Part shown: piece by piece, positions 14,981 through 63,640 of the stretch
Position numbering within the stretch: position 1 is the first letter of the stretch
Layout of the letters: every line of letters begins with the position of its first letter
NCBI RefSeq assembly: GCF_041248615.1
Contig: NZ_CP158425.1
Origin: Escherichia coli
Lineage (GTDB): Bacteria > Pseudomonadota > Gammaproteobacteria > Enterobacterales > Enterobacteriaceae
DNA length: 64,000 nucleotides
Reading direction: 5' to 3' (one strand)
Notes under the pieces: model-generated
Seen by the model: only the letters and a program-made list of their open reading frames with translations
Databases searched by the model: none
Told to the model about the DNA's origin: nothing
Translations under genes and position numbers: made by a program

Positions 14981-15226
14981 GGTATCTCCTGTTCCCGGCA
15001 TCTAAGCCGAAGTCAGGCAGAAATTCCACTTATCACCGCTGTGCAGATTTCCCGAGCCACCTCTATCGTCGATCATTTGAGGAGCCTCGGCCGTTTCTAC
15101 GACCTGCGGCTTGAGACACTCCAATAGCGACTATGGGTCGGTCCGCGCTTTAGAATAAGGGATCTAGACCCTGTCGCCAATTTTGGCCTGACGGGGGTTT
15201 CCAGCTACGCCTTCATATGTCGTGCC

Positions 15227-24916: not shown

Positions 24917-24961
24917 CGGCCATGACCGGCATGGCCGTACTCATCAAAAGTGAAAGTAACT

Positions 24962-26489: not shown

Positions 26490-26548
26490 AAGCAGACGGC
26501 GGGAAGAGAATGTTCAAAAGTGACTTTTGGACACGCACATAAACGTGG

Positions 26549-27416: not shown

Positions 27417-27429
27417 AAAAGTTACTTTT
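27417..27429. repeat. AAAAGT-N-ACTTTT motif instance (AAAAGTTACTTTT)
   Basis: Perfect; overlaps dsbC-like stop codon, 14 bp upstream of next gene start. Confidence 0.6.
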
Positions 27430-29509: not shown

Positions 29510-29522
29510 TAAAGTAACTTTT
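29510..29522. repeat. AAAAGT-N-ACTTTT motif instance (TAAAGTAACTTTT)
   Basis: 12/13; between convergent HAD-like and HNH genes. Confidence 0.5.
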
Positions 29523-38604: not shown

Positions 38605-38605
38605 A

Positions 38606-39481: not shown

Positions 39482-39494
39482 AAAAGTAACTTTT
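39482..39494. repeat. AAAAGT-N-ACTTTT motif instance (AAAAGTAACTTTT)
   Basis: Perfect; oriT-candidate intergenic region. Confidence 0.6.
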
Positions 39495-39966: not shown

Positions 39967-39979
39967 AAAAGTAACTTTA
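39967..39979. repeat. AAAAGT-N-ACTTTT motif instance (AAAAGTAACTTTA)
   Basis: 12/13; oriT-candidate intergenic region, other side of the palindrome array. Confidence 0.55.
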
Positions 39980-41387: not shown

Positions 41388-44300
41388 ATGATGATGAATT
41401 TCAGGGCGCTGTATTTATGTATTAAACGGATTTTGGGGATATTCTCATCTCAGGAGAATGATGCAACCTCTGTAATGATTGAGGATATATCAAGCCTCTC
41501 TCCTTTTGCGCAGATTCTAGGAGATCAGAAGTACACTGTTCCTGATCATCCAAATCCAGAAGTCCTGAAATTCATCGAGTATCCAACTCGTCCGACGGGC
41601 ATACAGACATTTAATGAACAGTCAATCCTGTCTCTGTATCGGGAAAAGCTGCACTCAATTTCAATGATGTTAGCTATCAGCGATAGCGACATCAGGGACG
41701 ATGCATATACATTTACTAATTTAGTATTAAAGCCCTTGGTTGAATATGTTCGCTGGATACATCTTTTGCCAGCTTCCGAAAATCATCATCATAATGGTAT
41801 TGGTGGGTTACTTTCTCACAGCCTGGAAGTGGCCATACTCTCTTTAAAAAATGCGCATCACTCAGAACTGAGACCAATCGGATATCAAGATGAAGAAGTA
41901 GTCCGTAGAAAAGTATATCTCTATGCTGCGTTTATCTGTGGTTTAGTCCATGATGCCGGAAAGGTTTACGATCTCGATATTGTAAGCCTGAATTTAGCTA
42001 GTCCGATCATTTGGACGCCAAGCTCACAAAGTCTTCTTGACTGGGCACGTGAAAATGACGTGGTTGAATACGAAATCCACTGGCGAAAGCGTATTCATAA
42101 TCAACATAATATCTGGTCCAGCGTTTTCCTTGAGCGAATCCTAAACCCGGTATGTCTTGCATTTTTGGATCGGGTAAATAAAGAACGTGTTTATTCAAAA
42201 ATGATCACCGCCCTAAACGTTTATACTGATGGGAATGACTTTTTGTCTAAATGCGTGAGGACCGCTGATTTCTATTCTACTGGTACAGACCTTAATGTTT
42301 TACGTGACCCTATCATGGGTCTGCGTTCTAATGATGCAGCAGCAAGGGCCATTAGTACCATCAAGCACAACTTTACCAGTATCAATATCAACAATTACAA
42401 TGCTAAGCCTATGCACATCATTATCGTAAATGGTGAGGTATACCTTAACGAGAACGCATTCCTTGATTTTGTTCTCAATGATTTCGAATTACATAAATAT
42501 AACTTCCCTCAGGGAGAGGCTGGTAAGACGGTATTGGTAGAATCCCTAGTTCAACGTGGTTACGTCGAGCCCTATGATGATGAGCGTGTCGTTCACTACT
42601 TCATTCCGGGTATCTATTCGGAAAACGAAATATCAAACATCTTTAGAAATGGGATAGGGAAACTAGAATTCTATAACCTTCTTAAGCTAAGGTGGATTGG
42701 TTTAATCTTTGATTCCTATAAAATCCCTGACTCAGTGCCGGGTCTTTTTAGCGTTAATGCCAATAAAGACTTTATTTACATTGACGAGCAAAAAACAGTT
42801 ACTGAATACAGAAGACCAGTGCCCGGTCGGGACGCTATAACTAAAATTACTGATACTGTTGAGACGGCTGTTCTTAAGGTTAATGATTTAGGCCGCTCCA
42901 CTGCCTCTATTGATGTTGATATACATTCTAAGAAAAATGAAGGCTCATCCGACGATTTTGAGAAGAAAGCCGAAAGTGATAATGAAATTGATAATGACAC
43001 GCAGATAGTTAAATCTGAGGGTGAGGAAGCAGCTGATCCTGTCATTCCTGATATAGAAGAAAGTGAAGATGAATCGGCAAAGGACACGGAATCCCATGTC
43101 CTGGTCAACCAACTTCATGAACTCCTTTTAAGCGCTCCACTTTCCAATGACTATATAGTGTGTGTAGATGCTGTCCCCTACCTCAACATAGATGCCACTA
43201 TGGCATTGCTGCCGGGATTAGATGAAAAAGCATTTAGTGAAGAGCCCTATTTCCAACTGACATTCAGAGAAGGCTCTCTCGATGGAATGTGGATAGTAAG
43301 GGACATTGACGATCTGCGTTTAGTCCAGCTCGGCGATAACTGCGCCGGGTTCCAGCTCACCTATCATGAGCCAAGAAGGCCAACAACTTTAAAGTCACTT
43401 TTCAATACTTCTATGTATCAGGCATTAGTGATTAATGATGAGTCTTCTGTTGAAAACTCTGCCCCACGTCCAAAGCAAACGCTTGAGCTGCCTCCCCCAC
43501 GTGTAAATGCACTCGAAGAACATTCTGGCGACGTGGAATATCATGGAACCGATAGTGCATCCGCGACTGGTCCGCTGAAAACTGAGGCTGTGGAATATGA
43601 ACATTATCAACATCTTTTTGAGGAAGAAGATGAAGAGCATGAGATCATTGATTATACCGATTTCACACAGCTTAGTGTTTCTCGGCCAGAAGTCGGTAGT
43701 TGTGCAACAAGCTCTTCGGTCCATAATGAAAAGCTTCTCCCCGAGCCGTCAGAATTACCAGAACTTAACCGAGAACAGAACGCTGATCCCCAGGGTACGA
43801 TTGAACGCTCTATGGATGTTTCTGTAGGACAAGAAAACTCAGAACCAGATACTGAGGGTAACTGCCCACCACCAGCTGAAGTTGTGTATTCCCAGACCGA
43901 AGCAGCCGCAACCAGTGTGATGGCAAGTGAAGAGCCCGCCTTACCTCCTGTACTTGAAGAATCAAATGGAGAGCATGCGCCCACAGACGCTAAGGGGCAT
44001 CATCTTTCGCCAGCACTGGCCAGACTGTTCGCCCCAACAGCACCGGTAGAAAAACAAAATCCCAAGCGCAACCGGAATAAATCATCGGACAAAGCAGAAG
44101 TACAAAAACCAGCATCACCTGTTTCTGGTCACAATCTGAACAGTAAAGTCTTTGCAACTACTGAATCAGACCAAAATGGTGAATTCTCGCTTATAAGCGA
44201 AGGTGACGTTACAGAGCTTGAATTTGTAGAAATTGCGTCAGTACTGCATCAAATTCTGTCCAAAATGGAGGTGGCGTTTAAAAGAAAGCGCAAAAACAGA

Positions 44301-44540: not shown

Positions 44541-46624
44541 TGTCAGATTCGAAGAGGACTAACCTCCATGCACAAGAGAATTTTTATCGGCCTATTCTTG
44601 AGTATCGTAGTGCCTCAATACTTTTGATTTGTTCGGTTTCTATGCTTTATATGGGACTTTCTTCAGACGGACTGGACATCGCCCCAATAGTTCTGTTCAC
44701 CTCAATATTGCTTTTTTTGCTGTGCCTTTATCGTTGCAAAACAGCAGCGCCATTCTTGATGGCTCATTGGCGTGTATTCAAGCGACATTTCATGTTCGTT
44801 AGTCTTGATTCACTGCGTGTAATTAACAAAAGTAACTTTTTCTCCAATGAGCGAAAGTATCGTCAACTGGTTCAGGATTATCAAAATAAAAATAAGGATA
44901 TACCCGAGCGAAAGTCCTATTTTTGTGATGGGTTTGAGTGGGGCCCGGAACATGCGGATCGGGCATATCAAATAGCTAACCTCTCCAGTGATAAACGTGA
45001 GATCGAGTTGCCATTCGTCTTCAACCCAATTAAGAGACATTTTGACGCAATGGCTCGTAAGATGGGCGGCAGCAATGCAATTTTTGCTGTGGAACGTAGG
45101 GAACCCATATTTGTAACTGAAGACAATTGGTTTGGTCATACTCTGATAACCGGAAACGTGGGTACCGGGAAAACGGTGCTACAGCGTTTACTAAGCATTA
45201 GCATGCTTCATCTTGGTCATGTTGTTGTTGTCATAGATCCAAAGAACGATGCAGAGTGGCGAGAATCTCTAATGGAAGAGGCTAAGACCCTCGGTCTTCC
45301 TTTCTATAAATTTCATCCTGGCCAGCCAGCATCTTCGGTCTGTATTGATGTCTGCAACACCTATACTAATGTTTCTGACCTAACATCTCGTCTTTTGAGC
45401 TTGGTGACAGTTCCCGGTGAGGTTAACCCATTCGTTCAGTATGCCAAGGCTCTCGTTTCCAATGTGATTTCCGGGCTTTCTTACATAGAGAAAAAGCCTT
45501 CTATTTATCTGATTCACAAGAACATGAAAAGCCACATGTCTATTGTGAATCTTACAGTCAAGGTAATGGAGTCATGTTACGCGAGATATTATGGTTACGA
45601 TGTCTGGACCGAAAAAGTTAAGTACGTCGCTAACGAAACCTTGCCGGTACGTTTCAAGCGTCTCGCTGAATGGTTTACGGCTCATTTCATGAATTACGAG
45701 GGGTCCGAACAAATAGACTGGTTAGATACTGTTTCCCAGCTTATTGATTACTCAATGTCCGACCCAGAGCATATGGCTAAAATGACCGCAGGTATTATGC
45801 CTGTTTTCGATATGCTCATTGAAAAACCTTTAAATGAGCTTTTATCTCCTAACCCGAACTCAGTATCATCAAGAGAAATTGTAACAAGCGAAGGGATGTT
45901 CAGCACTGGCGGGGTGCTATACATTTCGCTTGATGGCCTTTCAAACCCCGATACAGCAGCTGCTATTTCTCAATTAATAATGTCAGATCTGACCTCCTGT
46001 GCCGGTAGTCGCTACAACGCTCAGGATGGTGATATGTCAGCTAATTCCAGGATAAGTATTTTTGTTGATGAGGCACACTCAGCCATTAACAACCCTATGA
46101 TTAACCTTCTGGCGCAGGGTCGTGCAGCGAAAATTGCACTGTTTATTTGCACCCAAACCATCTCCGACTTTATTGCTGCGGCAAGTGTTGAAACTGCCAA
46201 TCGAATTACGGGGCTCTGCAACAATTATATAAGCTTGCGAGTCAACGATACTCCTACTCAGACGCTTGTTGTAGAGAACTTTGGTAAGAGTGCGATAAGC
46301 ACAAATATGGTCACTTATACGACCGGTTCAGAAACATCTTTGCCGCATAATAACTTCTCAGGTTCAATCTCAGAAAGAAAGCAGACAACTTTAGAAGAGA
46401 GTATTCCAAAGGATCTCTTGGGTCAGGTCCCTATGTTTCACATAGTTGCCAGGCTTCAAGATGGCAGGAAGGTTGTAGGCCAAATCCCTATTGCTGTTGC
46501 TGAGAAACAAATGAAGCCAAACACAACTCTGTCGGAAATGCTTTTCAAGAAGGCCGGAAAAGTTACTTTGCGTCAAAATCTCGATATCAAAAATCTTAAT
46601 AAATTTCTAAGGAAGTTGCATTGA
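44540..46624 (+). CDS. type IV coupling protein (TraG/TraD/VirD4 family)
   Basis: 694 aa; N-terminal TM segments; Walker A GNVGTGKT; start overlaps traI stop. Confidence 0.85.
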   Translation: MSDSKRTNLHAQENFYRPILEYRSASILLICSVSMLYMGLSSDGLDIAPIVLFTSILLFLLCLYRCKTAAPFLMAHWRVFKRHFMFVSLDSLRVINKSNFFSNERKYRQLVQDYQNKNKDIPERKSYFCDGFEWGPEHADRAYQIANLSSDKREIELPFVFNPIKRHFDAMARKMGGSNAIFAVERREPIFVTEDNWFGHTLITGNVGTGKTVLQRLLSISMLHLGHVVVVIDPKNDAEWRESLMEEAKTLGLPFYKFHPGQPASSVCIDVCNTYTNVSDLTSRLLSLVTVPGEVNPFVQYAKALVSNVISGLSYIEKKPSIYLIHKNMKSHMSIVNLTVKVMESCYARYYGYDVWTEKVKYVANETLPVRFKRLAEWFTAHFMNYEGSEQIDWLDTVSQLIDYSMSDPEHMAKMTAGIMPVFDMLIEKPLNELLSPNPNSVSSREIVTSEGMFSTGGVLYISLDGLSNPDTAAAISQLIMSDLTSCAGSRYNAQDGDMSANSRISIFVDEAHSAINNPMINLLAQGRAAKIALFICTQTISDFIAAASVETANRITGLCNNYISLRVNDTPTQTLVVENFGKSAISTNMVTYTTGSETSLPHNNFSGSISERKQTTLEESIPKDLLGQVPMFHIVARLQDGRKVVGQIPIAVAEKQMKPNTTLSEMLFKKAGKVTLRQNLDIKNLNKFLRKLH
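44828..44840. repeat. AAAAGT-N-ACTTTT motif instance (AAAAGTAACTTTT)
   Basis: Perfect; inside coupling-protein gene about 290 bp from its start. Confidence 0.5.
46558..46570. repeat. AAAAGT-N-ACTTTT motif instance (AAAAGTTACTTTG)
   Basis: 12/13; near 3' end of coupling-protein gene. Confidence 0.45.
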
Positions 46625-49575: not shown

Positions 49576-50307
49576 ATGGATGCTTTCAATCTGCTGTGGA
49601 GCATTACGGGGGTAGCTTTCATTATCCTTATTTTCGTCGTGTTGCTGTGTCTGTTGGGTTTTATGACCTCTGCCATAGCGGAACGGCGGACTGCAAAGGC
49701 AATTGAATCTGGGCTTCCTGAAGAAGCTCAGGGGCTACTTAGTGATCTCACCTTTCAGTTGTCGGCTCATAGCACTACTCAGGTTGATCACATTCTCGTA
49801 GCCCCACATGGTATATACGTCATAGAGCAGAAAAACTACGTAGGCAAGCTCTACGGTACTCTGGAGGAAAGCCACTGGCGGAAATGGACTCAGTCCCGAA
49901 CCCTCAAGTTGCAGAACCCGTTTAAGCAAAACCAGGGGCACATCAGGGCTATTCAGTCTGCTCTTAAGGCTAGAGAACTGGAATGTATCAATGTCGTCAT
50001 CATAAACGGACGTTGTAAGTTTGATGGCATCAAGCCGGAATGGTTATGTATGGGGATGGACGATTTTATCCATAAAGTCAAACAACGACGAGGGCTACGG
50101 TTGTTCACACCGGAGTCTGTTCAGCACATCTGTTCGGTGTTGAAGTCAACAAGGAAGTCGCCAGGGCTCTATACGGACCTTACTCATATTCACAACATAA
50201 CGACAAAGTACAAAGCCCCGATGAAATTCGAGCAACGAGTAACATACATTCTGCTCAACTTTATCCATTATCTGTGGGCAAGTCTGTTCACTAAGCAGAA
50301 GCCTTAG
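49576..50307 (+). CDS. NERD-domain protein with N-terminal membrane anchor
   Basis: DHILVAPHGIYVIEQKNYVGKLYG matches the NERD core; ATG one nucleotide after the peptidase stop. Confidence 0.65.
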   Translation: MDAFNLLWSITGVAFIILIFVVLLCLLGFMTSAIAERRTAKAIESGLPEEAQGLLSDLTFQLSAHSTTQVDHILVAPHGIYVIEQKNYVGKLYGTLEESHWRKWTQSRTLKLQNPFKQNQGHIRAIQSALKARELECINVVIINGRCKFDGIKPEWLCMGMDDFIHKVKQRRGLRLFTPESVQHICSVLKSTRKSPGLYTDLTHIHNITTKYKAPMKFEQRVTYILLNFIHYLWASLFTKQKP

Positions 50308-50345
50308 CGCTCTATCATTGGTAAGGCTGTAAAATGTCTGCAAAA

Positions 50346-50378
50346 GGCCCCATCGGTAAATTGTTGGGGCTTTTTCTT
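50346..50378 (+). terminator. rho-independent terminator ending the relaxase/coupling operon
   Basis: GCCCCA-loop-TGGGGC followed by TTTTTCTTT. Confidence 0.6.
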
Positions 50379-50593
50379 TGCGTAGTTCTGATACGGTTTA
50401 TCCTGTGGAGCATTATGGCCACCAGCCAGCTGGTGACTGGCCAACGCTTTGTATGACGTAGCCTACTCAGGGCAGGCTATTTTAGAGGGACCGATTTTTA
50501 TCCGGGCTAATTTAGAAAGAGATAATTTGAACTTAGGCGGGCTGACCACCAGCAGAGAGGTAAATCACTAGCCGGTGATATTGACAGAAGTCG

Positions 50594-50956
50594 TCAGGGG
50601 TTTAACGCCGGAATATTTTGCCAGGCCTCCTGCAAGGTCTGCAAGACTTCTACAAGTGATAGTGACGGCCACAGGACTGTTTCCGTCATTATCACTCCAG
50701 GTGGCTCGCACTCTACTGGTACCAGAATTAAAACAACACGAGTTCCTTTTACCTGGTAGGCAAGGTTTACTGCCGGTTGGCGGTAGGAGGCCAGTACACC
50801 CTCACCATATTGAGCAGGGTTACTTGCCCAGTTCCGCACCATTGCATACACCTGAGGCATATACCGACTATCCAGATCCCCTTTGGGCCGTCTGAACGGC
50901 ACGATTTCTTCTGAGCGGTAGGTGGTCGTTGTTGTATTGGTTGTCATCTTTGTCAC
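50594..50956 (-). CDS. hypothetical protein (120 aa)
   Basis: ORF only. Confidence 0.35.
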   Translation of the reverse strand: MTKMTTNTTTTTYRSEEIVPFRRPKGDLDSRYMPQVYAMVRNWASNPAQYGEGVLASYRQPAVNLAYQVKGTRVVLILVPVECEPPGVIMTETVLWPSLSLVEVLQTLQEAWQNIPALNP

Positions 50957-51012
50957 CTCCCCTGTTCGTCCATTTAGAGTTTTAAGCTGCTTTACACATC
51001 ACACTCAACTGA

Positions 51013-51297
51013 TTATTTAAGCTGGTCATCGTCTCTGGCCAGCATAGCCCAACCATTCGACTGGTTTTCGCGGGAGTAAGGATTCATTTCAAAATAACTA
51101 TCTACCGCGTCGCTGTCCGCAACAGAACTGTTGTTAGCTCTCTTTGAACCCTGAACCACTACAGCATCAACCTCTGCGGCTTTCCCGTTGCGCTGTACCA
51201 GGATTTTAACCGTCTTGGGCTTACGTCTTGCGAGCAGTTTGTTGGCGATAAAAAGCACAACAATCCAGGCCAAAAGCACGTATAAAAATTTATTCAT
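51013..51297 (-). CDS. small membrane protein (94 aa)
   Basis: N-terminal TM helix MNKFLYVLLAWIVVLFIANKLL. Confidence 0.4.
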   Translation of the reverse strand: MNKFLYVLLAWIVVLFIANKLLARRKPKTVKILVQRNGKAAEVDAVVVQGSKRANNSSVADSDAVDSYFEMNPYSRENQSNGWAMLARDDDQLK

Positions 51298-51451
51298 AAT
51301 GCCCTCCTTTGTATGTGATTATTATACCTGCTTCCATTGCAGGCCAAACAGGTTCGGTGTATGAAAAATAGACTTCTCTCCGGCGTATAGCAATCTACTT
51401 ACTGATCTGTTTTCGTATCAAACTGTATGGCATAACCGAGGGGCGTACGTG

Positions 51452-51464
51452 GTGAGTCAGAAAG
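51452..51464. repeat. AAAAGT-N-ACTTTT motif instance (GAAAGTTACTTTT, followed by CCG)
   Basis: 12/13; intergenic, 155 bp upstream of 51297 gene start. Confidence 0.55.
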
Positions 51465-51653
51465 TTACTTTTCCGTAATAGTTAATTTCAGATCCTTCTT
51501 CCAGTTACGCTTCAGTATAAAACCGATACCCTCTAATTCAGCATCCTTCACGTTTAATACGCTTCACTTTAAGGCAGGGCTTTTCGGTTGATATGAATTC
51601 TTTTTCCGGTTGCTGGACATGGGTTTCATCCTGATAGTTAAAATTGCAGGCTA

Positions 51654-51956
51654 TCAGTCACCACCACCACCTCCTCCTCCTCCTCCTCCACCGCCACCAT
51701 CACAACCACCAGCTATGCTATTTTCACCATTACAATCACCTCCGAGGGGGTTCAAATGGCTGCTCCCCTGTAGATGGTGTCCTTGCCAGATCGAACCCGA
51801 ACCAGCGCCTCCTGAGCGTCTTTGCTTGCCCTGAGGCAATTGTGCAGGCTCACCAGCACCGGCGGTCCCAAAAATGTCCCGGGCAATTTTATAAAGAAGG
51901 TAAAAAGGTACGCCCAGCATCATAAAAAAGATTACTGAAAATATTACACGTTCCAT
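51654..51956 (-). CDS. small membrane protein with C-terminal poly-glycine tail
   Basis: N-terminal TM helix; C-terminus GGCDGGGGGGGGGGGGGD encoded by the GGN repeat tract; strand chosen by neighbours. Confidence 0.35.
   Translation of the reverse strand: MERVIFSVIFFMMLGVPFYLLYKIARDIFGTAGAGEPAQLPQGKQRRSGGAGSGSIWQGHHLQGSSHLNPLGGDCNGENSIAGGCDGGGGGGGGGGGGGD
51661..51707. repeat. CCN/GGN trinucleotide repeat tract
   Basis: caccaccaccacctcctcctcctcctccaccgccaccatcacaaccacc. Confidence 0.8.
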
Positions 51957-52388
51957 TGATGATCTCCTGTCTTGTGAGAGACCAGTTATATCAGGGTGAT
52001 TCAGTATTTCCGTTTAGAAAAGAGTACTAATTTGGCCCTGTTCGATCTTAATTTGCCATCCGGGAAAAAGTCATAGGGATAGGCCTGCCAGAGTCAATAA
52101 CTTCCAGTGATCTGGAGGAGACCCCGGCTCTCTGAGCCCTCATGGATGGTACGGCTTTACCCCCTGTAAACAGATTCACGTTCCGCAGGACAAACATCGA
52201 CTACTGACGTCTCATATTTGCTGACGCTAATCCGACGTCTCATTGCCGTCTGCTTGTTTTCTTTAAAGGGTGTATTAGACGAATATCAAATCGGAATGGT
52301 AGGGGATGTGTGGGCACCATGCCCGGCCCTCTTTGAGCATCTGAGAGATTGGAGACCTAGCCGGGTAAGATAGCTACTTTCTTACGGG

Positions 52389-52757
52389 TTACCCTTCAAA
52401 TCCAAAGACGAAACGGACGCTGCCGTTCTCCACGTGGAGACGCTTTACTTCTTCGACAAATTCCTGGATCACCTCTCCGGCGTTATCGGGTGGTATGGCT
52501 GACAAAATTTCTTCCGAAGTCAGCCATGAGTATGAATGTTCACCGAATAAATCATCATCTTCGGACGGTATATCATCAGGTAATCCGCGTAATGCGTGGA
52601 TAAAAACTGCTGATGTGCTCGCCCTTTCACGATCTACATCAAATCCGAGCCAGGCAAAGTGGAGATATGATCGGTCCCCTTTATAATTGCTTGATAAATT
52701 AATCCATTTACCAGGCTTTTCTTCCCTTTGAAATCGCCAGCAGATATCAACGCCCAT
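52389..52757 (-). CDS. hypothetical protein (122 aa)
   Basis: ORF only. Confidence 0.35.
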   Translation of the reverse strand: MGVDICWRFQREEKPGKWINLSSNYKGDRSYLHFAWLGFDVDRERASTSAVFIHALRGLPDDIPSEDDDLFGEHSYSWLTSEEILSAIPPDNAGEVIQEFVEEVKRLHVENGSVRFVFGFEG

Positions 52758-52921
52758 TAAGAAACTCCATTACTATCGTTCGTATGAGATAACTATCATT
52801 TCAGAATACTATGACTTCTTCCCGTATAGAACTAATCGCTCACGCCAACTGGGCGAAGCCAACCGGTTCCGCCACTTCGCTCATTGGTTTTTAGGCGTAA
52901 GCACTGAAGCCAGTCTCCATG

Positions 52922-53464
52922 CTAACTGGCGAGCCTGCGAAAGTCAGACTCGTTGTTATAAAGCGGCATATCGTAAGCGGTGTCTGAAATGAACATGCGG
53001 ATCTGCTCAAGCGTCATGCCACAATGAAAACGGTTTACGCTCACATTGGCCCGGGGGAAGTCAGCACAAAACGCATTCAAAACATTTTCATGGACAATGC
53101 CAATGTTGATCAACGCAGCTGGCCCGTTGTCACGGAAGGATACGACACGGAATCCCCCATACCAGCCTGAATGGGAGAAAAATGAAAATGCGCCGGATGC
53201 CAGACCATTAGACAGGTCATAGCGCAATTTCCCGCACAGAGACTGGCTGTCTTTGCTGTACACGCGATTAATGAAAATACCGGGACCAACTTCTACCGGC
53301 TGCTTGTTGCTTGCTAAACACGGAAAGCCCACCAGCGAAACCTCCCTTTCTCCTGACCAGTTTACCTGATACCCGGCAGTGAGAAAGTCCGTCAGTTCTA
53401 CGCCAGAAAGAGCATTAATGGCCGCGATATCGGTAGTCAAAATATTTACGTTTTTCATATTCAT
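52922..53464 (-). CDS. hypothetical protein (180 aa)
   Basis: ORF only. Confidence 0.4.
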   Translation of the reverse strand: MNMKNVNILTTDIAAINALSGVELTDFLTAGYQVNWSGEREVSLVGFPCLASNKQPVEVGPGIFINRVYSKDSQSLCGKLRYDLSNGLASGAFSFFSHSGWYGGFRVVSFRDNGPAALINIGIVHENVLNAFCADFPRANVSVNRFHCGMTLEQIRMFISDTAYDMPLYNNESDFRRLAS

Positions 53465-53525
53465 CTCATCTTTATTCTAAAGTGCGTTTTTTGTCTATCA
53501 GCCCGAGGATTGAAAATTTGAATAT

Positions 53526-53963
53526 TTAATGTGACAGATAAATACCTGTCACTTTTTCAAAAACAGCCTGTAATTGAATATCGAGAGAGTTCATTTTAAA
53601 ATCCACCAGCTCACCTTTATTATCGCAAACCAAATAAAAATAGGAGTCAAATGCGTCTGTATCTTCATCTTTAAAAATACGGAAGGAATTAATTTTATCA
53701 TGCCCTTCAAATTCGGCATGAATACCATAGCGAACCGAGCCGTCATCGAACTGAACAACCCGTCGTACAGAATTAATCCGGACGTACTGTTTTAAGGCCC
53801 TCGCGAAATCGGCATTTAACGCCAACGCTCGTAAGATTGAATCAGCGGTTTCATTCTGCTTTTTACGATCGTATTCAAATATCCCACAGCCGGTGTTACG
53901 AAAGACCGGCTGAAGAGCATTAACCAGGTTGAAGGAATCCACGTTTCTGTCGTTTCTGTACAT
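53526..53963 (-). CDS. hypothetical protein (145 aa)
   Basis: ORF only. Confidence 0.4.
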   Translation of the reverse strand: MYRNDRNVDSFNLVNALQPVFRNTGCGIFEYDRKKQNETADSILRALALNADFARALKQYVRINSVRRVVQFDDGSVRYGIHAEFEGHDKINSFRIFKDEDTDAFDSYFYLVCDNKGELVDFKMNSLDIQLQAVFEKVTGIYLSH

Positions 53964-54007
53964 GAGATATCTCCTGCCCCTCCGCTATACGAAGGGGCTT
54001 GATAGGG

Positions 54008-54304
54008 TTACTGCCAGGCTGCGATCACTTCTTCGCACTGGAAATGAGATAAGCACTGCTGGAGTAGAAGAGCCAGCACCGCTGTGTTAGGGACGCGATT
54101 GTTACACCACGCGTTGAAAAGCAGCTGCCATGGACCGGCATAATACCCGGCCAGTTTCTTTTTTTGTTTAGCTGTACGGCAGCGGGAAATGGCCTGCTGA
54201 TAAAGGCTTTCATTCTCATCACCAGCCCGTTTTTGCAGAGTGCGATAAATATACGAATAAAGACTGTCAGAACAGTTTGAAGCGTACGCCAGTTGTTTTT
54301 TCAT
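54008..54304 (-). CDS. hypothetical protein (98 aa)
   Basis: ORF only. Confidence 0.35.
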   Translation of the reverse strand: MKKQLAYASNCSDSLYSYIYRTLQKRAGDENESLYQQAISRCRTAKQKKKLAGYYAGPWQLLFNAWCNNRVPNTAVLALLLQQCLSHFQCEEVIAAWQ

Positions 54305-54424
54305 AATACCTCCTGTTTAGAAGTATTATATGTAAACAGCCTCAGCGGCTAATAACCCGTAGCAATATAATTTGCATTTTTTCTATTTCTGAAGACGCTT
54401 TTTAAATTAATATTTACTGAGTTA

Positions 54425-54703
54425 TCACAACTTATTATTCTTCCCGTCTGCTGTTTTATTAATCCCCCAGTTAGTAATCACGCCAAGTCGGCGCAATTTT
54501 TCACGTTGTTCATAAATAAAAAAATCGCCAAGGCAGTCTTTTAAAACTTCACTATCCTGATATTTTATTTTTTGAAGCATCCTCGCAACTATGGCGCGTT
54601 TCAGGAATATGGCTGCATCAGACTCAAGCATTTGTGAGGACTGTCTGACGGTCTCCTGCATGTCGACGATACTGCTGAGCTTTCGTCTGACCACGCTTAG
54701 CAT
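54425..54703 (-). CDS. hypothetical protein (92 aa)
   Basis: ORF only. Confidence 0.35.
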   Translation of the reverse strand: MLSVVRRKLSSIVDMQETVRQSSQMLESDAAIFLKRAIVARMLQKIKYQDSEVLKDCLGDFFIYEQREKLRRLGVITNWGINKTADGKNNKL

Positions 54704-54887
54704 AGTGTCCGGGAACCGCTTAGCGGCTGAATGTAACCCGCAACAACGTTACGCATTGTTTTACTCACTGCAATTTTCCATTTAAGTCTGTTTGTTCCAC
54801 CAGCTGCTAACATCAGCGTTATTCATCCTGAGGTTTCGCCCGCGATTGACAGATCAGAGGCAGCATGGATGAAATTGCCAGAGTAGA

Positions 54888-55169
54888 TCACTGCATACGC
54901 GAATAGTGGTTTGTATTCAGTTCTGCGTTTGCCTGCTTTTCCAGTGCTGTCATAACCCGGCGGAGCATCGCCAGAGCCTGAACAGGCGAGCTCCCAAACT
55001 GCACTTTCACTTCAGCCGTATCATGATCCTGAATCAGGTCGAGTATATTCACTTCGATCCCTGCCCCGTTTTCATCTTTTGCCGTGCACTGAATACTTAC
55101 CCGGGTCACCGAATCCGTCAGGACTGGCAGTGGGTTAGTTTTGTCTACGTTGATAACAGCCTTCTTCAT
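54888..55169 (-). CDS. hypothetical protein (93 aa)
   Basis: ORF only. Confidence 0.35.
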   Translation of the reverse strand: MKKAVINVDKTNPLPVLTDSVTRVSIQCTAKDENGAGIEVNILDLIQDHDTAEVKVQFGSSPVQALAMLRRVMTALEKQANAELNTNHYSRMQ

Positions 55170-55188
55170 TGCCCTGTTTCCCCTTGTC

Positions 55189-55232
55189 CTGAAAAAGTTA
55201 CCGACCCGTCCGGATGGAGGGGTCGGTCAGAA
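55189..55232 (-). terminator. terminator-like hairpin after the ParB-like gene
   Basis: GACCGACCC / GGGTCGGT stem followed by T-run on the minus strand. Confidence 0.45.
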
Positions 55233-55234
55233 AA

Positions 55235-56419
55235 TCATGACTGTCCCTTGTTCATCTTATCAGCATGCTTACGCAGGTACTCTTTCAGGTCAGCATGAGC
55301 GTTGATGATATCGTTCATTTCATCATTGGTCAGAACAAGCGTGTAAGTATCAGTACTGACAGATTCACCTTCTTTAAGCTTGGCTTCTTCAGCAATACGT
55401 TCAAAAATCGGGATCGCGGTGTCTGCAATGACGGTCACAGTCTTTTTGTTCAGAACGCTGGACATGGAAGGTGCTTTACCTGCCGGGTTCTGTTTAGGAG
55501 CGCTGTCCTTTGGAGCTGGAGCCGGTTCCTGTACCGGTGGCGTATCCAGCGTCTCCGTATTGCTTTCATCGTTCAGTTGATCCGGTACCGGGGTGTTATC
55601 GGTAGTATCATCTGCCGGTTGCTCAGCACCGATGTTTTCCGGAGTCTGCGGATCTGCCATGCGCTCTTCTACCTTGGCAGCTTTGACGAATTTCAGCGTG
55701 TTTTTCGTCGCCTTGCCATAGATGGAGATCGCTTTGTTGATGTTATCTACCGCATCCTCACCGCTGTACATATACTCGTCCAGTGCAACGTACATGCTCA
55801 CCTGATCGCTCACAAGCATGGTCTGTAGTTCAGAAGGCAGGTCCAGTACGCGAACCATCTGGCGAAGATGCTGCTCTGATTTACCACGTTTTTTTGCCAG
55901 TTCCGCAAAGGTCTTAGGCTCTTCTTTATCTTCAACCAGACGCTTAATTGAAAGCGCTTCAGCTACGACAGACAGCGCCAGGTTGGAGTTGCCGGTCAGG
56001 GTGAAGAGTTCTGCTTTTGAAGCGCTACCGCGAAACTCTTCGCAGCGAATACGAGTAATGCGTTCACGCCCTTCTGCTTCCAGCTGGCGGTTTGCAATAG
56101 CGATGGAACGGATACGGCAAGCCCCCTGACGCAGTACAGGTACGCCATTAACCATCTGAACAACGATAGGCGTCACGCTGAACGGGTCTTCCATGTAGGC
56201 ATCGGCCAGGCTGTTCAGGTGTTCCACAACGTGAGGCATTGAATAGTAGAGCTCGCCCATACCGGCCGTGCGGGTGTTAAAGCCTTCCTGCTCTACAACA
56301 ACCGAAGGGTCAATGATAAGGCCGTTGCCTTTACGGGCACCGTTACCAGTGCGTTCCAGGTAACCACGAAGGCTGATTTCGTTGCTGTTGTTTTTTACTT
56401 CAGTTTCGATTGCGGACAT
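55235..56419 (-). CDS. ParB/Srx-domain protein (ParB-like, orphan)
   Basis: N-terminal IIDPSVV..NTR and GACRIRS (GxxRxR[AS]) ParB-box-like motifs; acidic linker; no parA partner adjacent. Confidence 0.55.
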   Translation of the reverse strand: MSAIETEVKNNSNEISLRGYLERTGNGARKGNGLIIDPSVVVEQEGFNTRTAGMGELYYSMPHVVEHLNSLADAYMEDPFSVTPIVVQMVNGVPVLRQGACRIRSIAIANRQLEAEGRERITRIRCEEFRGSASKAELFTLTGNSNLALSVVAEALSIKRLVEDKEEPKTFAELAKKRGKSEQHLRQMVRVLDLPSELQTMLVSDQVSMYVALDEYMYSGEDAVDNINKAISIYGKATKNTLKFVKAAKVEERMADPQTPENIGAEQPADDTTDNTPVPDQLNDESNTETLDTPPVQEPAPAPKDSAPKQNPAGKAPSMSSVLNKKTVTVIADTAIPIFERIAEEAKLKEGESVSTDTYTLVLTNDEMNDIINAHADLKEYLRKHADKMNKGQS

Positions 56420-56508
56420 TTTTGTTCTCTTTTTTGGTTGGTTGTTTAACTGCGCTACAACACAACAATACCAGGTTCGACATTTTTCCTAATAGGTTGC
56501 GGAGAAGA

Positions 56509-56521
56509 AAAAGTAACTTTT
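56509..56521. repeat. AAAAGT-N-ACTTTT motif instance (AAAAGTAACTTTT)
   Basis: Perfect; 90 bp upstream of ParB-like gene start. Confidence 0.6.
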
Positions 56522-56634
56522 TTTAAAAATTTTCCTGAGGCAATACTACTCGATCCGTCCGTTTTAAATCTTCACAACAGTGGGCCGTTTTTACGTTTAA
56601 GCAAAATAACTGGTTCAGAAGGTGACTCAGAGAG

Positions 56635-56647
56635 AAAAGTTACTTTT
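56635..56647. repeat. AAAAGT-N-ACTTTT motif instance (AAAAGTTACTTTT, followed by CCGG)
   Basis: Perfect; 216 bp upstream of ParB-like gene start. Confidence 0.6.
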
Positions 56648-56834
56648 CCGGTTGTCTGGGCCAGTGATGGGAGAGTGGCAGGACAGGAATGGCTAAACCG
56701 GTGCGGGTCTCTTGTAAGTCGCAGGGGATTCAGGAGATATAGAGGTAAACTGGTACGTTCAGTTTTTGGATTGAGCCGGGCTTTTGGCCCGGGCTTAAGG
56801 AAGCAGAAATTTGAACGAACTGGCAGGTAATGCT

Positions 56835-57011
56835 TTATGCCGCCGACAGCTGGCCGTCAGTGCTTTGCTGTTCTGGTTTGACAGTTGGGGGATAACCGGC
56901 AGTTAGCCGCTGGCATTCCGCATCACAGAAAGCCCTGAGGTTGCTGAAGACGGACTCCATGAAATCAGCATGAGCATACGAGTCTACAGGACGTGTCTTG
57001 TTATCTTTCAT
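56835..57011 (-). CDS. small hypothetical protein (58 aa)
   Basis: ATG preceded by GAGGAGAA; shorter than ORF-track entry. Confidence 0.3.
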   Translation of the reverse strand: MKDNKTRPVDSYAHADFMESVFSNLRAFCDAECQRLTAGYPPTVKPEQQSTDGQLSAA

Positions 57012-57520
57012 CTTGTTCTCCTCAATCATTATTAAAACCAGCGGATTTAGTTTCTGGCGCTCCATCTGCTGACCGGCTTTCCCAGAGAGCAGCGATGTGT
57101 CGGGTTCTTTTTCTCATTTTATCGTTTTCATCGGGCCCATCCGGGCGTATAAGAGACCGATTTGGCATGTTTAGGAAACGTACTGGCGTAATTAAAAGCT
57201 GAGGTTGGATTTGGAATAAAAGGATGCTTTTCCCGTTTGTCGGGTCTTTCGCCACCGCTGCACGATGATTCTGTCAGGCATTCTGCGCCCTCCCAGGCTG
57301 CACATCTGGAAACAAGCGTTGGGATGTTCCCTTCCCCTGCTCACCGTAGAAAGATCGGCAAGTCCCGACGGTCGTTCCGTACGAGCCGGGTCCAAATAAT
57401 GAATAAATAAAACGCCGCTTCAATTGTATTGACAATAGAAGTCAGGAGGATCATAGTGTCATTCATGGTGCGGCTTTCGCACCACCGCCCCGGCGGTACC
57501 GGGCAGAACTGGAGTACCTC

Positions 57521-58465
57521 ATGAAACTTTCCCGTCAGACGACTTCTGATACTTCTGTTGATGGCCGTTCACGCGCATATGCCTGGGGCCGTGTCCATTA
57601 TTTCATTATCGAACATGCACCAATGGCTGAGCTGGTCGCTATTGACGAGCTGCTGGAAAAAGCTGGCTGGAGCAATGACGGCTGTCCGAACTATGAGAAA
57701 GATGACGAGTTTGGTAATGCTGGTTACAGCTGTGGTTACTGGATCGATATTGACAGCGTGGGAAGCTTCAAGGCTGACTACAAACGTCTTAAGGGGGAGA
57801 TTAGTGCGCATATCGCCTCAAAGGCGGCAGAGGTGGAGATCCGCGTACTGGACTCGATGTCCGACAAAGAATGTAAAGATGTTGCCTCGGTGGCATCTAC
57901 TGTTCGCCGTGACTTACGTACGCAGTCCGAATCGCTTCATTCACTGCGTACAATCGTAACGGTTGATCATTACAATCCCTATGTGACCACCAGCCGCCCG
58001 CTGAGCATTTCCGCCTGGACACTTATCCACGACTGTCTGAAAACAGGCACCATCAATGACGTCTGTTCACGGTTGAGTTCATTAATCCTGCACTCTGAAG
58101 CCGCGATTGCCCGTTGTAAGGGAAGCTCCGACTACTCTTCGGAACACGCTCAGCTATCGTTTTTTGCTGGTAACGACTATGTCACCAGACGCACCCTTGT
58201 TGATGCAGCTCACGAAGAGGCTCTGCGAATGAACCGCCGCTTTGATGAACGCATTGCAATGAACGCGGATTCTGATGCCAGAAGGCTCCAGTGCGAATTC
58301 AACCTTAGCAACCATGTCGTACAGCGTAGGACCGTTGAATCTGCTCATATCCAGGCACTCAATGAAGACGTCACCCGTTCACAGGCGGAACCACGCTGCC
58401 CTGGAAAGCTTCTTCTGAATATGACCAGTCATGAGGAAGTGCGGGACTCACTGAGCGCCTGTTAG
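57521..58465 (+). CDS. hypothetical protein (314 aa)
   Basis: GGAG upstream of the ATG. Confidence 0.45.
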   Translation: MKLSRQTTSDTSVDGRSRAYAWGRVHYFIIEHAPMAELVAIDELLEKAGWSNDGCPNYEKDDEFGNAGYSCGYWIDIDSVGSFKADYKRLKGEISAHIASKAAEVEIRVLDSMSDKECKDVASVASTVRRDLRTQSESLHSLRTIVTVDHYNPYVTTSRPLSISAWTLIHDCLKTGTINDVCSRLSSLILHSEAAIARCKGSSDYSSEHAQLSFFAGNDYVTRRTLVDAAHEEALRMNRRFDERIAMNADSDARRLQCEFNLSNHVVQRRTVESAHIQALNEDVTRSQAEPRCPGKLLLNMTSHEEVRDSLSAC

Positions 58466-58561
58466 TCCAGCGACACCCCCTGCGGCTCTACTACCGGGCC
58501 GCAGTCTGCTCCTGCCCAGATGGTGCCAGTGGTGTAATGAATTTGTTTAATAAGGCTAAGT

Positions 58562-59164
58562 ATGATGAATAAAGAACAACTAATCGACAAACTGGAACGC
58601 GTGGTATGTGGTCAGTACTCCTACGAAATGCAGGAGCTTGCGTATTCGGCCCTCTGCTGCATTAAAGGCACCCCGGACGACTGCGCTAAGTTCCCTGTTA
58701 CGCGTCCGCTGCCTGACACCTTAGTGGACGTATGGGACGAAATCGGGCAATACCTTGGCACAGGCAAAGCCATTGAAACTCGCAGTTGCGGCGTTTCGCT
58801 TCTGCTTCATGGACACTGCTACGATTCAAATCATGTGCTTTACTGGCGCAATGCTGGCGCACTTCCAGCAGCTTGCGATACGCCACTGGCTGGTGGGTCT
58901 CGCAAACTGTTCACCTGCTCAGCCTGTGGAGTGGACGGTCTGGATGAACCACCTGAAACCAGTTGCCACTGCTGCACAGAGGGGGCCCACTGGGTTGAGA
59001 GCAGGCTCTTCACCTCCGGGCAGGCAGACCCTGAAGAATTTAGACCCGTGGCGGTCGTGAAAGAGTGTGCAGGCTCAACGCCGGATGATCGGCTCATCTG
59101 GAGTGTGATTGAACAGCTCAACGGCGAACTGGCGGAAGGCGATAAACTATTTAAGCGACGCTGA
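58562..59164 (+). CDS. hypothetical Cys-rich protein (200 aa)
   Basis: Multiple Cys pairs. Confidence 0.4.
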   Translation: MMNKEQLIDKLERVVCGQYSYEMQELAYSALCCIKGTPDDCAKFPVTRPLPDTLVDVWDEIGQYLGTGKAIETRSCGVSLLLHGHCYDSNHVLYWRNAGALPAACDTPLAGGSRKLFTCSACGVDGLDEPPETSCHCCTEGAHWVESRLFTSGQADPEEFRPVAVVKECAGSTPDDRLIWSVIEQLNGELAEGDKLFKRR

Positions 59165-59217
59165 CAGATCACGGCAGCATTTATAACAGACGAACTCCAG
59201 AATAATTTAAAGCAACC

Positions 59218-59574
59218 ATGAACATGAAAAAGCCCAAAGCTGCATTACAGAATGCCATGAAAGAAGATGTGCCAGCTGTGACACAGATTCAGATGCGATC
59301 TACGGTTTCCAGAAAGGTTCGCTATGTAAAACAGGCAAATCGAGAGGGTCTGAAATTATCTGAGTGGATGTCGCGGCATCTCGACGCTGTCTGTGATACC
59401 GCAGATGAGATTCATAAAGGCAAACGCTCAACTCCGGTTGCGCCTGGGAAGATTCCCCCAGAGGTATACCAGGTGATATACGATCAGTGCGGCGGGTTCG
59501 TGGAGTGTGATGCTAATGCCCAGGTTATCTGGGAAGCCTGCCGTAATGCCATTCTTAACGGAGACAAAGGGTAA
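59218..59574 (+). CDS. hypothetical protein (118 aa)
   Basis: ORF only. Confidence 0.4.
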   Translation: MNMKKPKAALQNAMKEDVPAVTQIQMRSTVSRKVRYVKQANREGLKLSEWMSRHLDAVCDTADEIHKGKRSTPVAPGKIPPEVYQVIYDQCGGFVECDANAQVIWEACRNAILNGDKG

Positions 59575-59604
59575 ACGGCAGGTATCGCCTGTCATTTTAC
59601 CCTT

Positions 59605-59823
59605 GTGAGGACAATACTGATGAACCATGAGAGCCGAACTGTATACCTGAACACGGCCATTGAGGCCCTGCTGAAAGCTGAGGCGGCTCTGAACGATCTG
59701 GCATTAGCCTATGAGCTTAAACCTGATGAAAAGGCAAGCGCATGCCATCCCAGAACCGGCACACTTTCCACTGCGTCCCAGGTAAAAAAACTCCGCCGTG
59801 TCCTTGAGAAGCAGAAGGTATGA
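59605..59823 (+). CDS. hypothetical small protein
   Basis: ORF only. Confidence 0.3.
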   Translation: MRTILMNHESRTVYLNTAIEALLKAEAALNDLALAYELKPDEKASACHPRTGTLSTASQVKKLRRVLEKQKV

Positions 59824-60241: not shown

Positions 60242-60400
60242 CTACTTACCGGATTCGTAGGCCAGGATAGCAAATACCTCCCTTGTTCCGTCTTTCATCC
60301 GCAACTCGCAAAGCGAGTTTCGTGTGAGCCAGGTGAATATCAACAGCGTTAAACAAACTATTAATATGCACAAAACAATGGGTTGGTTCGGCATTTTCAT
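60242..60400 (-). CDS. hok: Hok/Gef-family membrane toxin (type I toxin-antitoxin)
   Basis: 52 aa [52 protein letters not shown] closely resembles Hok; in-frame upstream extension is mok-like. Confidence 0.85.
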
Positions 60401-60754
60401 GGCCTTCTTCTCCTTGCATTTAAGCAGGCAAGAGGCTACGCTGTGTGTGACTAGCATACAGGGGCCTCGGGTTAATTGAAAAATTACTCGGGGCTTTCTG
60501 CTTTTACCACAGTCAAACAGTGTTACCGCTGGCTGGGGCAAAAGCCTCCAGCACCAGCGTCATTATATCACTCTGCCCTGATCAGCCAAACACCCTGCCT
60601 GCATAAATCATTGATTTATAATTTATTTGACATGAGTCACTTCCGGTTGTCGGAGACAGTCTTTTTACACTAAAGAAAAGGGTAACGGGCAGCTGCTTGG
60701 TCGGAACATACAGTGCAGTTCCTGCCCGTTTAATTTCCGGATGCAATGGTAGGA

Positions 60755-63627: not shown

Positions 63628-63640
63628 GAAAGTTACTTTC
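63628..63640. repeat. AAAAGT-N-ACTTTT motif instance (GAAAGTTACTTTC)
   Basis: 11/13; intergenic, 140 bp upstream of 63488 gene start. Confidence 0.45.

Follow-up and report, generated by a model that had tools for sequence, protein, structure and literature searches.

The 64,000-nucleotide stretch of Escherichia coli DNA analyzed here (the window) contains, on its minus strand, a gene for a 394-residue orphan ParB-family protein, which we name PBL1; two palindromic sites lie upstream of this gene and nine small genes lie downstream of it. The window is identical in sequence to positions 128001–192000 of plasmid p14408_M1 (NZ_LT599829.1; 238,073 bp), which is typed IncHI2A, has a MOBH relaxase and an MPF_F transfer system, and carries mcr-1 and multidrug resistance. 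The best explanation of our sequence comparisons, to which we give a probability of roughly 55%, is that PBL1 would regulate its own gene and, in a site-specific manner like that of KorB, a plasmid-wide set of operators. The locus itself is a conserved module of the IncHI backbone, comprising two putative palindromic operators, PBL1 and a series of small genes in the same orientation, the content of which differs from one lineage to another. A 7.5-kb region is present at 95% identity or more in over 900 PLSDB plasmids.

PBL1 is an orphan member of the ParB family

The initial annotation described the PBL1 product as a ParB-like protein devoid of a ParA partner and preceded by two perfect AAAAGT-N-ACTTTT sites, and each of these points holds. 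The assignment to the ParB family relies on a set of matches connecting (i) residues 149–209 with the helix-turn-helix (HTH) family HTH_ParB of Pfam (PF17762, E = 1.5e-5), this region aligning with the HTH of Caulobacter ParB; (ii) residues 24–255 with PHROG 1033, 'ParB-like partition protein' (E = 1.6e-21); (iii) residues 67–210, in the form of a family profile, with the solved structures of Spo0J/ParB/Noc (E = 4e-12), so that RQGACRIRA of PBL1 falls on GERRFRA; and (iv) the AlphaFold model, searched with Foldseek, with ParB, KorB and Noc (probability 1.00), the top matches being CTP-bound ParB and KorB of RK2. In this model, the predicted local distance difference test score exceeds 90 for residues 13–255, which are followed by a disordered linker (residues 256–323) and a helical C-terminal module. 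The best global superposition is with the KorB–KorA complex 8qa9 (template modeling score 0.64–0.66, about 19% identity). The KorB domain of Pfam is absent from PBL1, for which Pfam gives HTH_ParB only. In the Box II segment RQG(A/H)CRxR, G99 and R102 are invariant in 27 of 27 family members, and the arginines of Box I and Box II are retained.

For at least 10 kb in both directions from PBL1, there is no parA gene, and none was found beside it at the IncHI2, IncHI1/R27, Klebsiella, Yersinia and Leclercia loci. Nor is there a conserved partner gene of the KorA, IncC or BisC type downstream of PBL1, where the neighbors are unrelated between lineages. Identity between PBL1 and its orthologues amounts to about 65% in IncHI1 plasmids, 44–51% in Leclercia and Yersinia, and 35% in Klebsiella IncHI1B plasmids. 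Altogether, the plasmid carries four ParB-family genes, namely that of the canonical parAB, PBL1 and two further orphans, PBL2 and PBL3 (Table 1). Complete ParAB and ParMR systems are both present on the plasmids besides PBL1. Note that the motifs GFNxR and RQGxCRxR are common to PBL1, PBL2 and PBL3. R0153, called a 'partition protein' in R27, was considered as a further ParB-like paralogue and rejected: this gene (NC_002305.1, positions 140402–140917, beside a cytosine methyltransferase gene) belongs to the thermonuclease family and its product does not have the ParB fold.

A palindrome dispersed over the IncHI backbone

The two sites upstream of PBL1 (AAAAGTAACTTTT and AAAAGTTACTTTT) belong to a much larger set. 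The window holds eight perfect copies of AAAAGT-N-ACTTTT, compared with none in 100 shuffled sequences, and the complete plasmids hold 24 (IncHI2, with 0.025 expected from base composition), 26 (R27) and 44 (Klebsiella). The IncHI2 plasmid contains a further 22 copies with one mismatch. Because nearly all mismatches concern the outermost base (18 of these 22 copies differ there only, as do 32 of 41 in Klebsiella), the constrained core is the 11-bp sequence AAAGT-N-ACTTT, the center of which prefers A or T; AAACTNAGTTT is an example of a core mutant of AAAAGTAACTTTT. This core occurs 51 times in the IncHI2 plasmid, 46 times in R27 (IncHI1) and 86 times in the Klebsiella IncFIB/IncHI1B plasmid, for about 0.3 expected in each, and it is the sole over-represented palindrome of the 5-N-5 or 6-N-6 type in each of these three complete plasmids. 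Its copies are confined to backbone DNA, the 46-kb resistance region of the IncHI2 plasmid having none. Of the 15 copies in the backbone DNA of the window, 10 fall between genes, whereas only about 20% of that DNA is non-coding (P = 1e-4). We rejected the idea that the motif forms an RNA hairpin, as a loop of one base should not be able to form.

Several copies are located close to transfer genes. The 758-bp oriT-type gap, which separates the genes corresponding to trhR/trhY from mobI, contains two, one on the side of each operon, at nearly the same distances in the window and in R27 (Table 1). In IncHI1 as in IncHI2, core copies are also present about 250–290 bp upstream of the pilin (trhA; AC) operon. 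In the Klebsiella plasmid, three copies fall in the oriT gap and trhA is preceded by five. Further perfect copies are found upstream of genes for immunoglobulin-like surface proteins, beside a replication gene of the RepB family and inside several tra genes. A literature search with the motif sequence returned unrelated papers only, and the motif and its link with PBL1 appear to be undescribed in the searchable literature.

The palindrome is associated with PBL1

Of the ParB-family genes, PBL1 alone is preceded by the motif in each of the five lineages tested, in which the protein is 35–65% identical. The number of upstream copies is 2 in IncHI2, 2 in R27, 6 in Klebsiella, 1 (+1) in Yersinia and 2 in Leclercia. 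These copies are located 96 and 222 bp upstream of the gene in IncHI2, 100 and 218 bp in R27 and 104 bp in Yersinia, IncHI1 having a core-intact copy at the same distance as the distal site of IncHI2. The six Klebsiella copies, all perfect, are irregularly spaced within 864 bp, and the two Leclercia sites, 252 and 285 bp upstream, have one mismatch each. In an alignment of the upstream regions of three lineages, the proximal site forms an island of invariant columns in otherwise divergent DNA. In addition, the recognition helix of PBL1 displays the pattern S-x-x-H-phi-R in all five lineages, whereas that of PBL2 varies. The comparative evidence thus lends good support to the earlier suggestion that the ParB-like protein is a plausible binder of the motif, binding itself being what we infer from these comparisons.

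Based on gene order read from both ends (flmA/hok being R0101 and the NERD-domain gene R0115), PBL1 should correspond to R0104 of R27. According to the R27 microarray supplement, the expression of R0104 is close to 2,200 units whether at 25 or at 37°C, without thermoregulation, and rises 2.6-fold in an htdA mutant. This constitutively high expression in donors fits a housekeeping regulator.

We propose that PBL1 dimers would bind the palindrome through the HTH and control their own promoter. PBL1 might act as a KorB-like global regulator, or as a DNA-loading protein, for the plasmid-wide sites, including those that flank oriT and those at the pilus-operon promoters, and the mode of regulation would be either repression or a VirB-like counter-silencing of H-NS. 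A nucleotide switch may be involved, given that PBL1 keeps the arginines of Box I and Box II, although its Box III is degenerate. Since the gaps are short and no terminators are found, the small genes from ORF9 to ORF4/5 would probably be read from the PBL1 promoter, ORF9 being probably co-transcribed with PBL1, while ORF2–ORF1 would have a promoter of their own that bears the motif as well. More tentatively, PBL1 could load at the 46–86 sites together with, or in opposition to, the thermoregulated PBL2/R0042, and thereby set the expression of the oriT-flanking, pilus and backbone operons.

Comparison with characterized ParB-like systems

Like PBL1, KorB of the IncP plasmids RK2/RP4 combines a ParB fold with an HTH. 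Its operator O_B (TTTAGCSGCTAAA) is palindromic over 13 bp, with an odd base at the center, to be compared with the putative PBL1 operator AAAAGT-N-ACTTTT, and in both cases the sites form a dispersed set of a dozen or more copies, which lie at or upstream of promoters, inside genes and in transfer control regions. The IncHI core copies counted above show such a dispersed-operator arrangement, some of them preceding the R, H and AC operons. However, KorB doubles as a partition ParB with IncC (a ParA) and works with KorA, whereas PBL1 has neither a ParA nor a conserved neighbor; besides, the IncHI copies are 4–7 times more numerous than the KorB sites, and Box III is degenerate in PBL1.

VirB of the Shigella virulence plasmid is a CTP-dependent anti-silencer, an orphan of the ParB family devoid of ParA function, the palindromic site of which has one base at its center. 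VirB derives from a P1-type ParB, has few sites and acts on AT-rich DNA silenced by H-NS. The context of PBL1 is VirB-like in that IncHI plasmids are controlled by H-NS/Hha and encode their own H-NS and Hha; by analogy, counter-silencing by PBL1 is conceivable, albeit conjectural. In contrast with VirB, R0104 is not thermoregulated.

The IncC/IncA ParB has 14 scattered 22-bp parS sites, which function in partition and incompatibility (Kiss lab, NAR 2024, PMC10954446). It resembles the IncHI case in several respects: IncC plasmids belong to a sister MOBH/MPF_F family, and their palindromes are scattered in the conserved backbone and mostly intergenic, some being located beside transfer promoters and one in the promoter of ParB itself (PMC10954446). 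Nevertheless, the IncC binder is the canonical ParB of parAB-053, whereas the IncHI motif tracks the orphan and the canonical IncHI ParAB has other cis elements; the two sequences, TTTCACATGTGAAA for the IncC parS and AAAGTNACTTT for IncHI, are unrelated; and no such site precedes the orphan PBL1 homologue of IncC. In pR55, the parS already published for IncC (core TTTCACATGTGAAA) came out of a de novo search for palindromes; it lies at positions 3435, 3894, 9218, 12554, 33013 and 36427 of the locus analyzed (L010) and five copies extend to ACTTTCACATGTGAAAGT. Note that the outer bases of the IncC parS, ACTTT...AAAGT, are the IncHI half-sites in everted order.

HerB/YfjB, encoded in the F leading region, is a 652-residue protein with an extra dimerization domain, which is zygotically induced and binds the host chromosome with no consensus motif (bioRxiv 2026, PMC13370423). 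Both HerB and PBL1 are orphan ParB-like proteins of conjugative plasmids, encoded near hok and small genes of the type of the domain of unknown function DUF905, and oriented toward oriT. PBL1 differs from HerB in its length of 394 residues, in its constitutive expression in donors and in its tie to a sharp plasmid-borne motif. We rejected orthology between the two, which are related no more closely than as members of one superfamily: BLASTP gave nothing significant, the hhalign match (E = 1e-4, 20% identity) is limited to the N-terminal domain and the HTH, and the C-terminal dimerization domains D3–D4 of HerB have no counterpart in the shorter PBL1. BisD of ICEclc, as it is cited in PMC13370423, is a ParB-like CTP clamp that activates transfer-competence genes. 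On that description alone, it is similar to the role proposed for PBL1, that of a ParB-like protein repurposed as a long-range transfer regulator, but BisD has a partner, BisC, while PBL1 has no conserved adjacent partner. The IncHI case is set apart from these systems by the combination of an orphan lying beside complete ParAB and ParMR systems, no partner, a degenerate Box III and a larger set of sites.

Points against PBL1 and candidate binders other than PBL1

Several observations weigh against PBL1 as the regulator that acts through the motif. About one third of the motif copies are intragenic, and a sigma-70-like promoter could not be placed relative to the sites. In Box II (GxxRxxA), Ala/His and Cys take the place of the canonical glutamate and first arginine, respectively, and the Box III signature ENxxR, which makes the Mg2+ and phosphate contacts, is not present, as PBL1 reads G-N-S-N-L and the family GN..L, with the asparagine alone being kept; because of these Box III and Box II residues, a CTP switch in PBL1 is uncertain. 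The S-x-x-H-phi-R pattern is also found in the IncC orphan homologue, around which the 40.6 kb examined contain no copy of the motif, so that the recognition-helix argument is only moderate. As it resembles canonical ParB too, the pattern may characterize the family instead of marking specificity. More generally, the link between protein and motif rests on association, from which binding by PBL1 is deduced. The upstream sites of PBL2 and the IncC precedent, both considered below, point in the same direction.

A less probable alternative is that another protein binds the motif, be it PBL2/R0042, TrhR/TrhY, HtdA, the canonical ParB or a host factor, and that PBL1 is a regulated target only. As regards PBL2, motif copies are located 86–112 bp upstream of its gene in the Klebsiella plasmid and, in an imperfect form, in the IncHI2 and Citrobacter plasmids. 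Its R27 counterpart, R0042, a 'partition protein' according to the R27 authors, is highly expressed and thermoregulated, being induced at 25°C (6,132 vs 2,278). However, neither PBL2 nor PBL3 has an upstream core site in R27, and the PBL2 helix varies while the motif is invariant.

As regards the transfer regulators, the tra operons R, H and AC, all preceded by the motif, are under TrhR/TrhY–HtdA control, and the loss of HtdA derepresses 139 of the 181 expressed R27 genes. Yet TrhR, TrhY and HtdA have no NCBIfam match and no recognizable HTH or other DNA-binding domain, and their regulon does not match the distribution of the sites: there is no motif at the F operon, which is TrhR/TrhY-dependent, and none at htdA in IncHI2 or R27, whereas the R operon has a site 82 bp upstream though it is not HtdA-regulated according to the R27 study. 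We therefore did not retain these proteins as binders. Note that the second product of the trhR/trhY operon (170 residues; window 38092–38604, minus strand), which has no NCBIfam match, displays a C-terminal CxxC...CxxC motif reminiscent of a zinc ribbon and recalls the FlhC/SetC/AcaC-type activators of related MOBH elements.

The canonical ParB might seem a natural candidate, given the IncC precedent of a canonical ParB that owns scattered palindromes. It is nevertheless an unlikely one, since canonical parA has its own unique operator palindrome (ACGCATTATGCGT) and, directly upstream, a tandem array of at least 12 units of about 249 bp (conserved core GATTTAACCCCCTTAATCGCCA), which is likely the sopC-like centromere of the Par1 system; the motif matches at parA all have at least two mismatches. 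The array extends over positions 12064–15500 of the locus L003 of NZ_LT599829.1, outside the window, and the PLSDB gene table shows no coding sequence (CDS) there. In the Klebsiella plasmid NZ_OY978235.1 (positions ~200700–201100), the region upstream of canonical parA contains a 24-bp palindrome, AAAAGTGCATTGTAATGCACTTTT, the outer arms of which are the half-sites of the IncHI motif, and, farther upstream, a run of about 13 GGGCA pentamers. Finally, the absence of the motif from the accessory DNA of the same plasmids argues against a host-driven bias.

The small genes and the leading-region proposal

The nine small minus-strand open reading frames (ORFs) reported downstream of PBL1 in the initial annotation are genuine in the sense that all are annotated CDSs in NZ_LT599829.1, with different start codons for two only (50947 and 53458), and they lack recognizable domains, as stated there: NCBIfam and PADLOC gave no match, and PHROGs gave only weak matches to families of unknown function. 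ORFs 1, 2, 5, 6, 7 and 9 are kept in order in IncHI1 with 52–73% identity. With a ratio of nonsynonymous to synonymous substitution rates (dN/dS) of 0.05–0.19 relative to their IncHI1 orthologues, ORFs 1, 6 and 9 behave as real genes; for ORF2 and ORF5, dN is 0.51 and 0.28, respectively, and dS is saturated. ORF2 and ORF3 have strongly hydrophobic N-terminal helices. ORF4 is the sole small ORF with a broad family (147 clusters from many phyla, some of them in phages), for which Pfam is empty; its fold is predicted with confidence and matches uncharacterized proteins only, the model hinting at a remote link with YfbM/DUF1877. One relative of ORF4 in AFDB is annotated as an 'integron gene cassette protein'. 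The homologues of ORF5 are limited to IncHI1/IncHI2, and their alignment is too shallow for modeling. The 3' end of ORF3 contains a (CAC)n tract of about 18 units (51659–51711), which encodes at least 12 glycines (a proline run on the other strand) and in which slippage could change the length of the protein in frame. ORF1 is convergent with the NERD gene, the last of the relaxase operon. Downstream of PBL1, gene content is wholly different among the IncHI2/IncHI1, Klebsiella, Yersinia, Leclercia and IncC plasmids; the pattern is that of a conserved anchor gene, PBL1, followed by variable small cargo genes.

It had been noted that this block resembles leading-region establishment loci. On such a reading, the block would enter the recipient early and be transiently expressed, its ORFs countering restriction, CRISPR or SOS. 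We consider this proposal unlikely, although several observations would agree with it. All the genes of the block point toward oriT, and a transfer starting with mobI would make the transferred strand their template; a hok gene is indeed present nearby, together with sok (Table 1), and, along with the ParB-like gene, DUF905 (in IncHI1) and orphan methylases farther out, it recalls the content of the F leading region; the genes downstream of PBL1 show complete turnover between lineages; and the majority of the small ORFs show no expression in R27 donors, R0106–R0109 and R0111 being scored 'not expressed' in the microarray supplement. In the same data set, R0105 (ORF9) and R0110 (ORF5) are low in the wild type and 6.5-fold up in the htdA mutant. 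The variable gene content, the silence in donors and the F-like content are compatible with a role in establishment or with an accessory role.

The remaining evidence does not favor early entry. For MobI/MOBH origins, neither the nic site nor the polarity is given in Samuel 2024, Westra 2013, Hegyi 2017, Poulin-Laprade 2015 or a 2026 preprint; in the related IncA/C oriT, the nic site could not be mapped, and MOBH was left out of the protospacer study for want of annotated origins. The 2026 preprint, which notes that experimental data on MOBH are lacking, uses an operational rule, by which the leading region is found across oriT from the relaxase and accessory genes; under this rule, the block would be on the lagging (relaxase) side, among the last DNA transferred. 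A 10-kb mobI–relaxase operon separates the block from oriT. Gene orientation is uninformative, because genes other than tra point toward oriT on both sides, including, left of oriT, those beyond the tra operons. There is no long inverted repeat of the Frpo type: the longest inverted repeats in 50300–57600 are 12–18 nt, without any Frpo- or ssi-type hairpin, and no promoter or terminator signals above chance were detected. Searches of NCBIfam, PHROGs and PADLOC, which do not form a dedicated anti-defense library, gave no match to anti-restriction proteins (ArdA/B, KlcA), Psi, single-stranded DNA-binding protein or anti-CRISPR proteins; the fold searches with ORF4 were uninformative; and the products of ORF2 and ORF3 resemble proteins that are exported or reside in a membrane. 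Lastly, PBL1/R0104 and R0113 (ORF2; about 2,600 units in the R27 microarray supplement) are highly expressed in established donors.

A possible segregation role for PBL1

Least probable of all is a structural or segregation role for PBL1, with the dispersed sites serving as centromere-like loading points for condensation, positioning or presentation of the plasmid for transfer instead of transcriptional control: the ParB fold with its retained Box I and Box II arginines, the six clustered perfect sites beside Klebsiella PBL1, which resemble a centromere cluster, the two or three sites flanking oriT in every lineage and the intragenic third of the sites, which recalls KorB class III or chromosomal parS sites, would agree with it, but no lineage has an adjacent ParA, the plasmids already have both ParAB and ParMR, the sites are enriched in promoter-proximal intergenic DNA, and the Klebsiella cluster has an irregular spacing. 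As regards centromere repeats beside the gene, the one to six motif copies upstream of PBL1 are irregularly spaced, and further copies are dispersed over the whole plasmid.

Genomic surroundings

On the left of the block, Tra1 comprises trhG, trhH and trhF, followed by the two genes corresponding to trhR/trhY (38092–39406), all on the minus strand. After the oriT gap, the plus strand carries mobI, the genes for the MobH relaxase and the coupling protein, three further genes, an S49 peptidase gene and the NERD-domain gene, which ends at 50307. Within the oriT gap, the segment 39731–39815 gave a sub-threshold Rfam match (E = 0.04) to a plant microRNA precursor, MIR7696; as a family call it is spurious, a chance match, but a hairpin-forming inverted repeat of oriT may lie behind it. 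On the other side of PBL1, four plus-strand genes (57521–59823; one with DUF5417 and three hypothetical) lie between PBL1 and hok in IncHI2; this segment is missing at the same position in IncHI1/R27 and looks like an IncHI2-specific insertion. The sok RNA scores 81 bits in Rfam for a gathering threshold of 59. From 50.6 kb of the window onward (NZ_LT599829.1, ~178.6–214.4 kb), about 36 kb consist of a near-unbroken series of small minus-strand genes, including hok, HNH nuclease genes, a PAPS-reductase-family gene, RelE and an orphan DNA methyltransferase gene, which make up a long co-oriented 'dark' part of the IncHI backbone.

Table 1. PBL1, its paralogues, the small genes and the copies of the palindrome (window positions, unless an accession is given)
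Feature	Position	Strand	Remarks
PBL1 (R0104 orthologue), 394 residues	55235–56419	-	ParB N-terminal fold, HTH, disordered linker, helical C-terminal module
Putative proximal operator, AAAAGTAACTTTT	56509–56521	.	Center 96 bp upstream of the PBL1 ATG
Putative distal operator, AAAAGTTACTTTT	56635–56647	.	Center 222 bp upstream of PBL1
Core copy, AAAGTNACTTT	51461–51471	.	About 165 bp upstream of ORF2; R27 equivalent upstream of R0113
Core copy, oriT gap	39483–39493	.	82 bp upstream of the trhR/trhY (R) operon; 81 bp in R27
Core copy, oriT gap	39968–39978	.	192 bp upstream of mobI (H operon); 192 bp in R27
Core copy	24953–24963	.	Between umuC and a DsbA-family gene
Core copy	26517–26527	.	Intergenic, convergent genes
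Core copy	27418–27428	.	24-bp gap upstream of gene 27005–27397
Core copy	29511–29521	.	Just beyond the end of a HAD-domain gene
Core copy	36423–36433	.	trhF/trhH junction, intragenic; also in IncHI1
Core copy	39042–39052	.	Within the first gene of the R operon
Core copy	43391–43401	.	Within the MobH relaxase gene
Core copy	44829–44839	.	Within the coupling-protein gene; also in IncHI1
Core copy	46559–46569	.	Coupling-protein gene, near the 3' end
Core copy	63629–63639	.	Intergenic, right of the hok region
PBL2, orphan ParB-like, 387 residues	NZ_LT599829.1, 232168–233331 (L006: 27168–28331)		R27 counterpart R0042
PBL3, orphan ParB-like, 351 residues	NZ_LT599829.1, 236542–237597 (L006: 31542–32597)
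ORF9, 93 residues	54888–55169	-	65 bp downstream of PBL1; 58% identity in IncHI1 (R0105)
ORF8, 92 residues, basic	54425–54703	-	IncHI2-specific
ORF7, 98 residues	54008–54304	-	72% identity in IncHI1
ORF6, 145 residues	53526–53963	-	52% identity in IncHI1; dN/dS 0.10
ORF5, 180 residues	52922–53464 (annotated start 53458)	-	R27 orthologue R0110
ORF4, 122 residues, pI 4.6	52389–52757	-	IncHI2-specific here; broad uncharacterized family
ORF3, 100 residues	51654–51956	-	N-terminal hydrophobic helix, poly-Gly tail; IncHI2-specific
ORF2, 94 residues	51013–51297	-	N-terminal hydrophobic helix; R27 orthologue R0113
ORF1, 120 residues	50594–50956 (annotated start 50947)	-	73% identity in IncHI1; 27%, weak, in Klebsiella IncHI1B
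hok toxin gene and sok antisense RNA	60242–60556	-	RefSeq Hok-family toxin 60242–60361; Rfam RF01794

Significance

IncHI plasmids are major vehicles of resistance to colistin (mcr-1) and tigecycline and of multidrug resistance in typhoid. Their transfer is thermoregulated by a circuit comprising TrhR/TrhY, HtdA and H-NS/Hha, the DNA targets of which are undefined, and the operator conserved in IncHI1, IncHI2 and IncHI1B-type plasmids provides a concrete cis element together with candidate trans factors, PBL1 in the first place and PBL2 in the second. If PBL1 is the protein that binds this operator, the theme represented by KorB, VirB and BisD would extend to an orphan whose plasmid has a complete partition system apart from it, and titration or inactivation of PBL1 might disturb the transfer or maintenance of the whole plasmid group. 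If, in addition, PBL1 loads at the dispersed sites with or against PBL2 in the way tentatively proposed above, this regulatory layer would be the missing cis/trans mechanism behind the derepression observed in htdA mutants and the thermosensitive transfer of IncHI plasmids.

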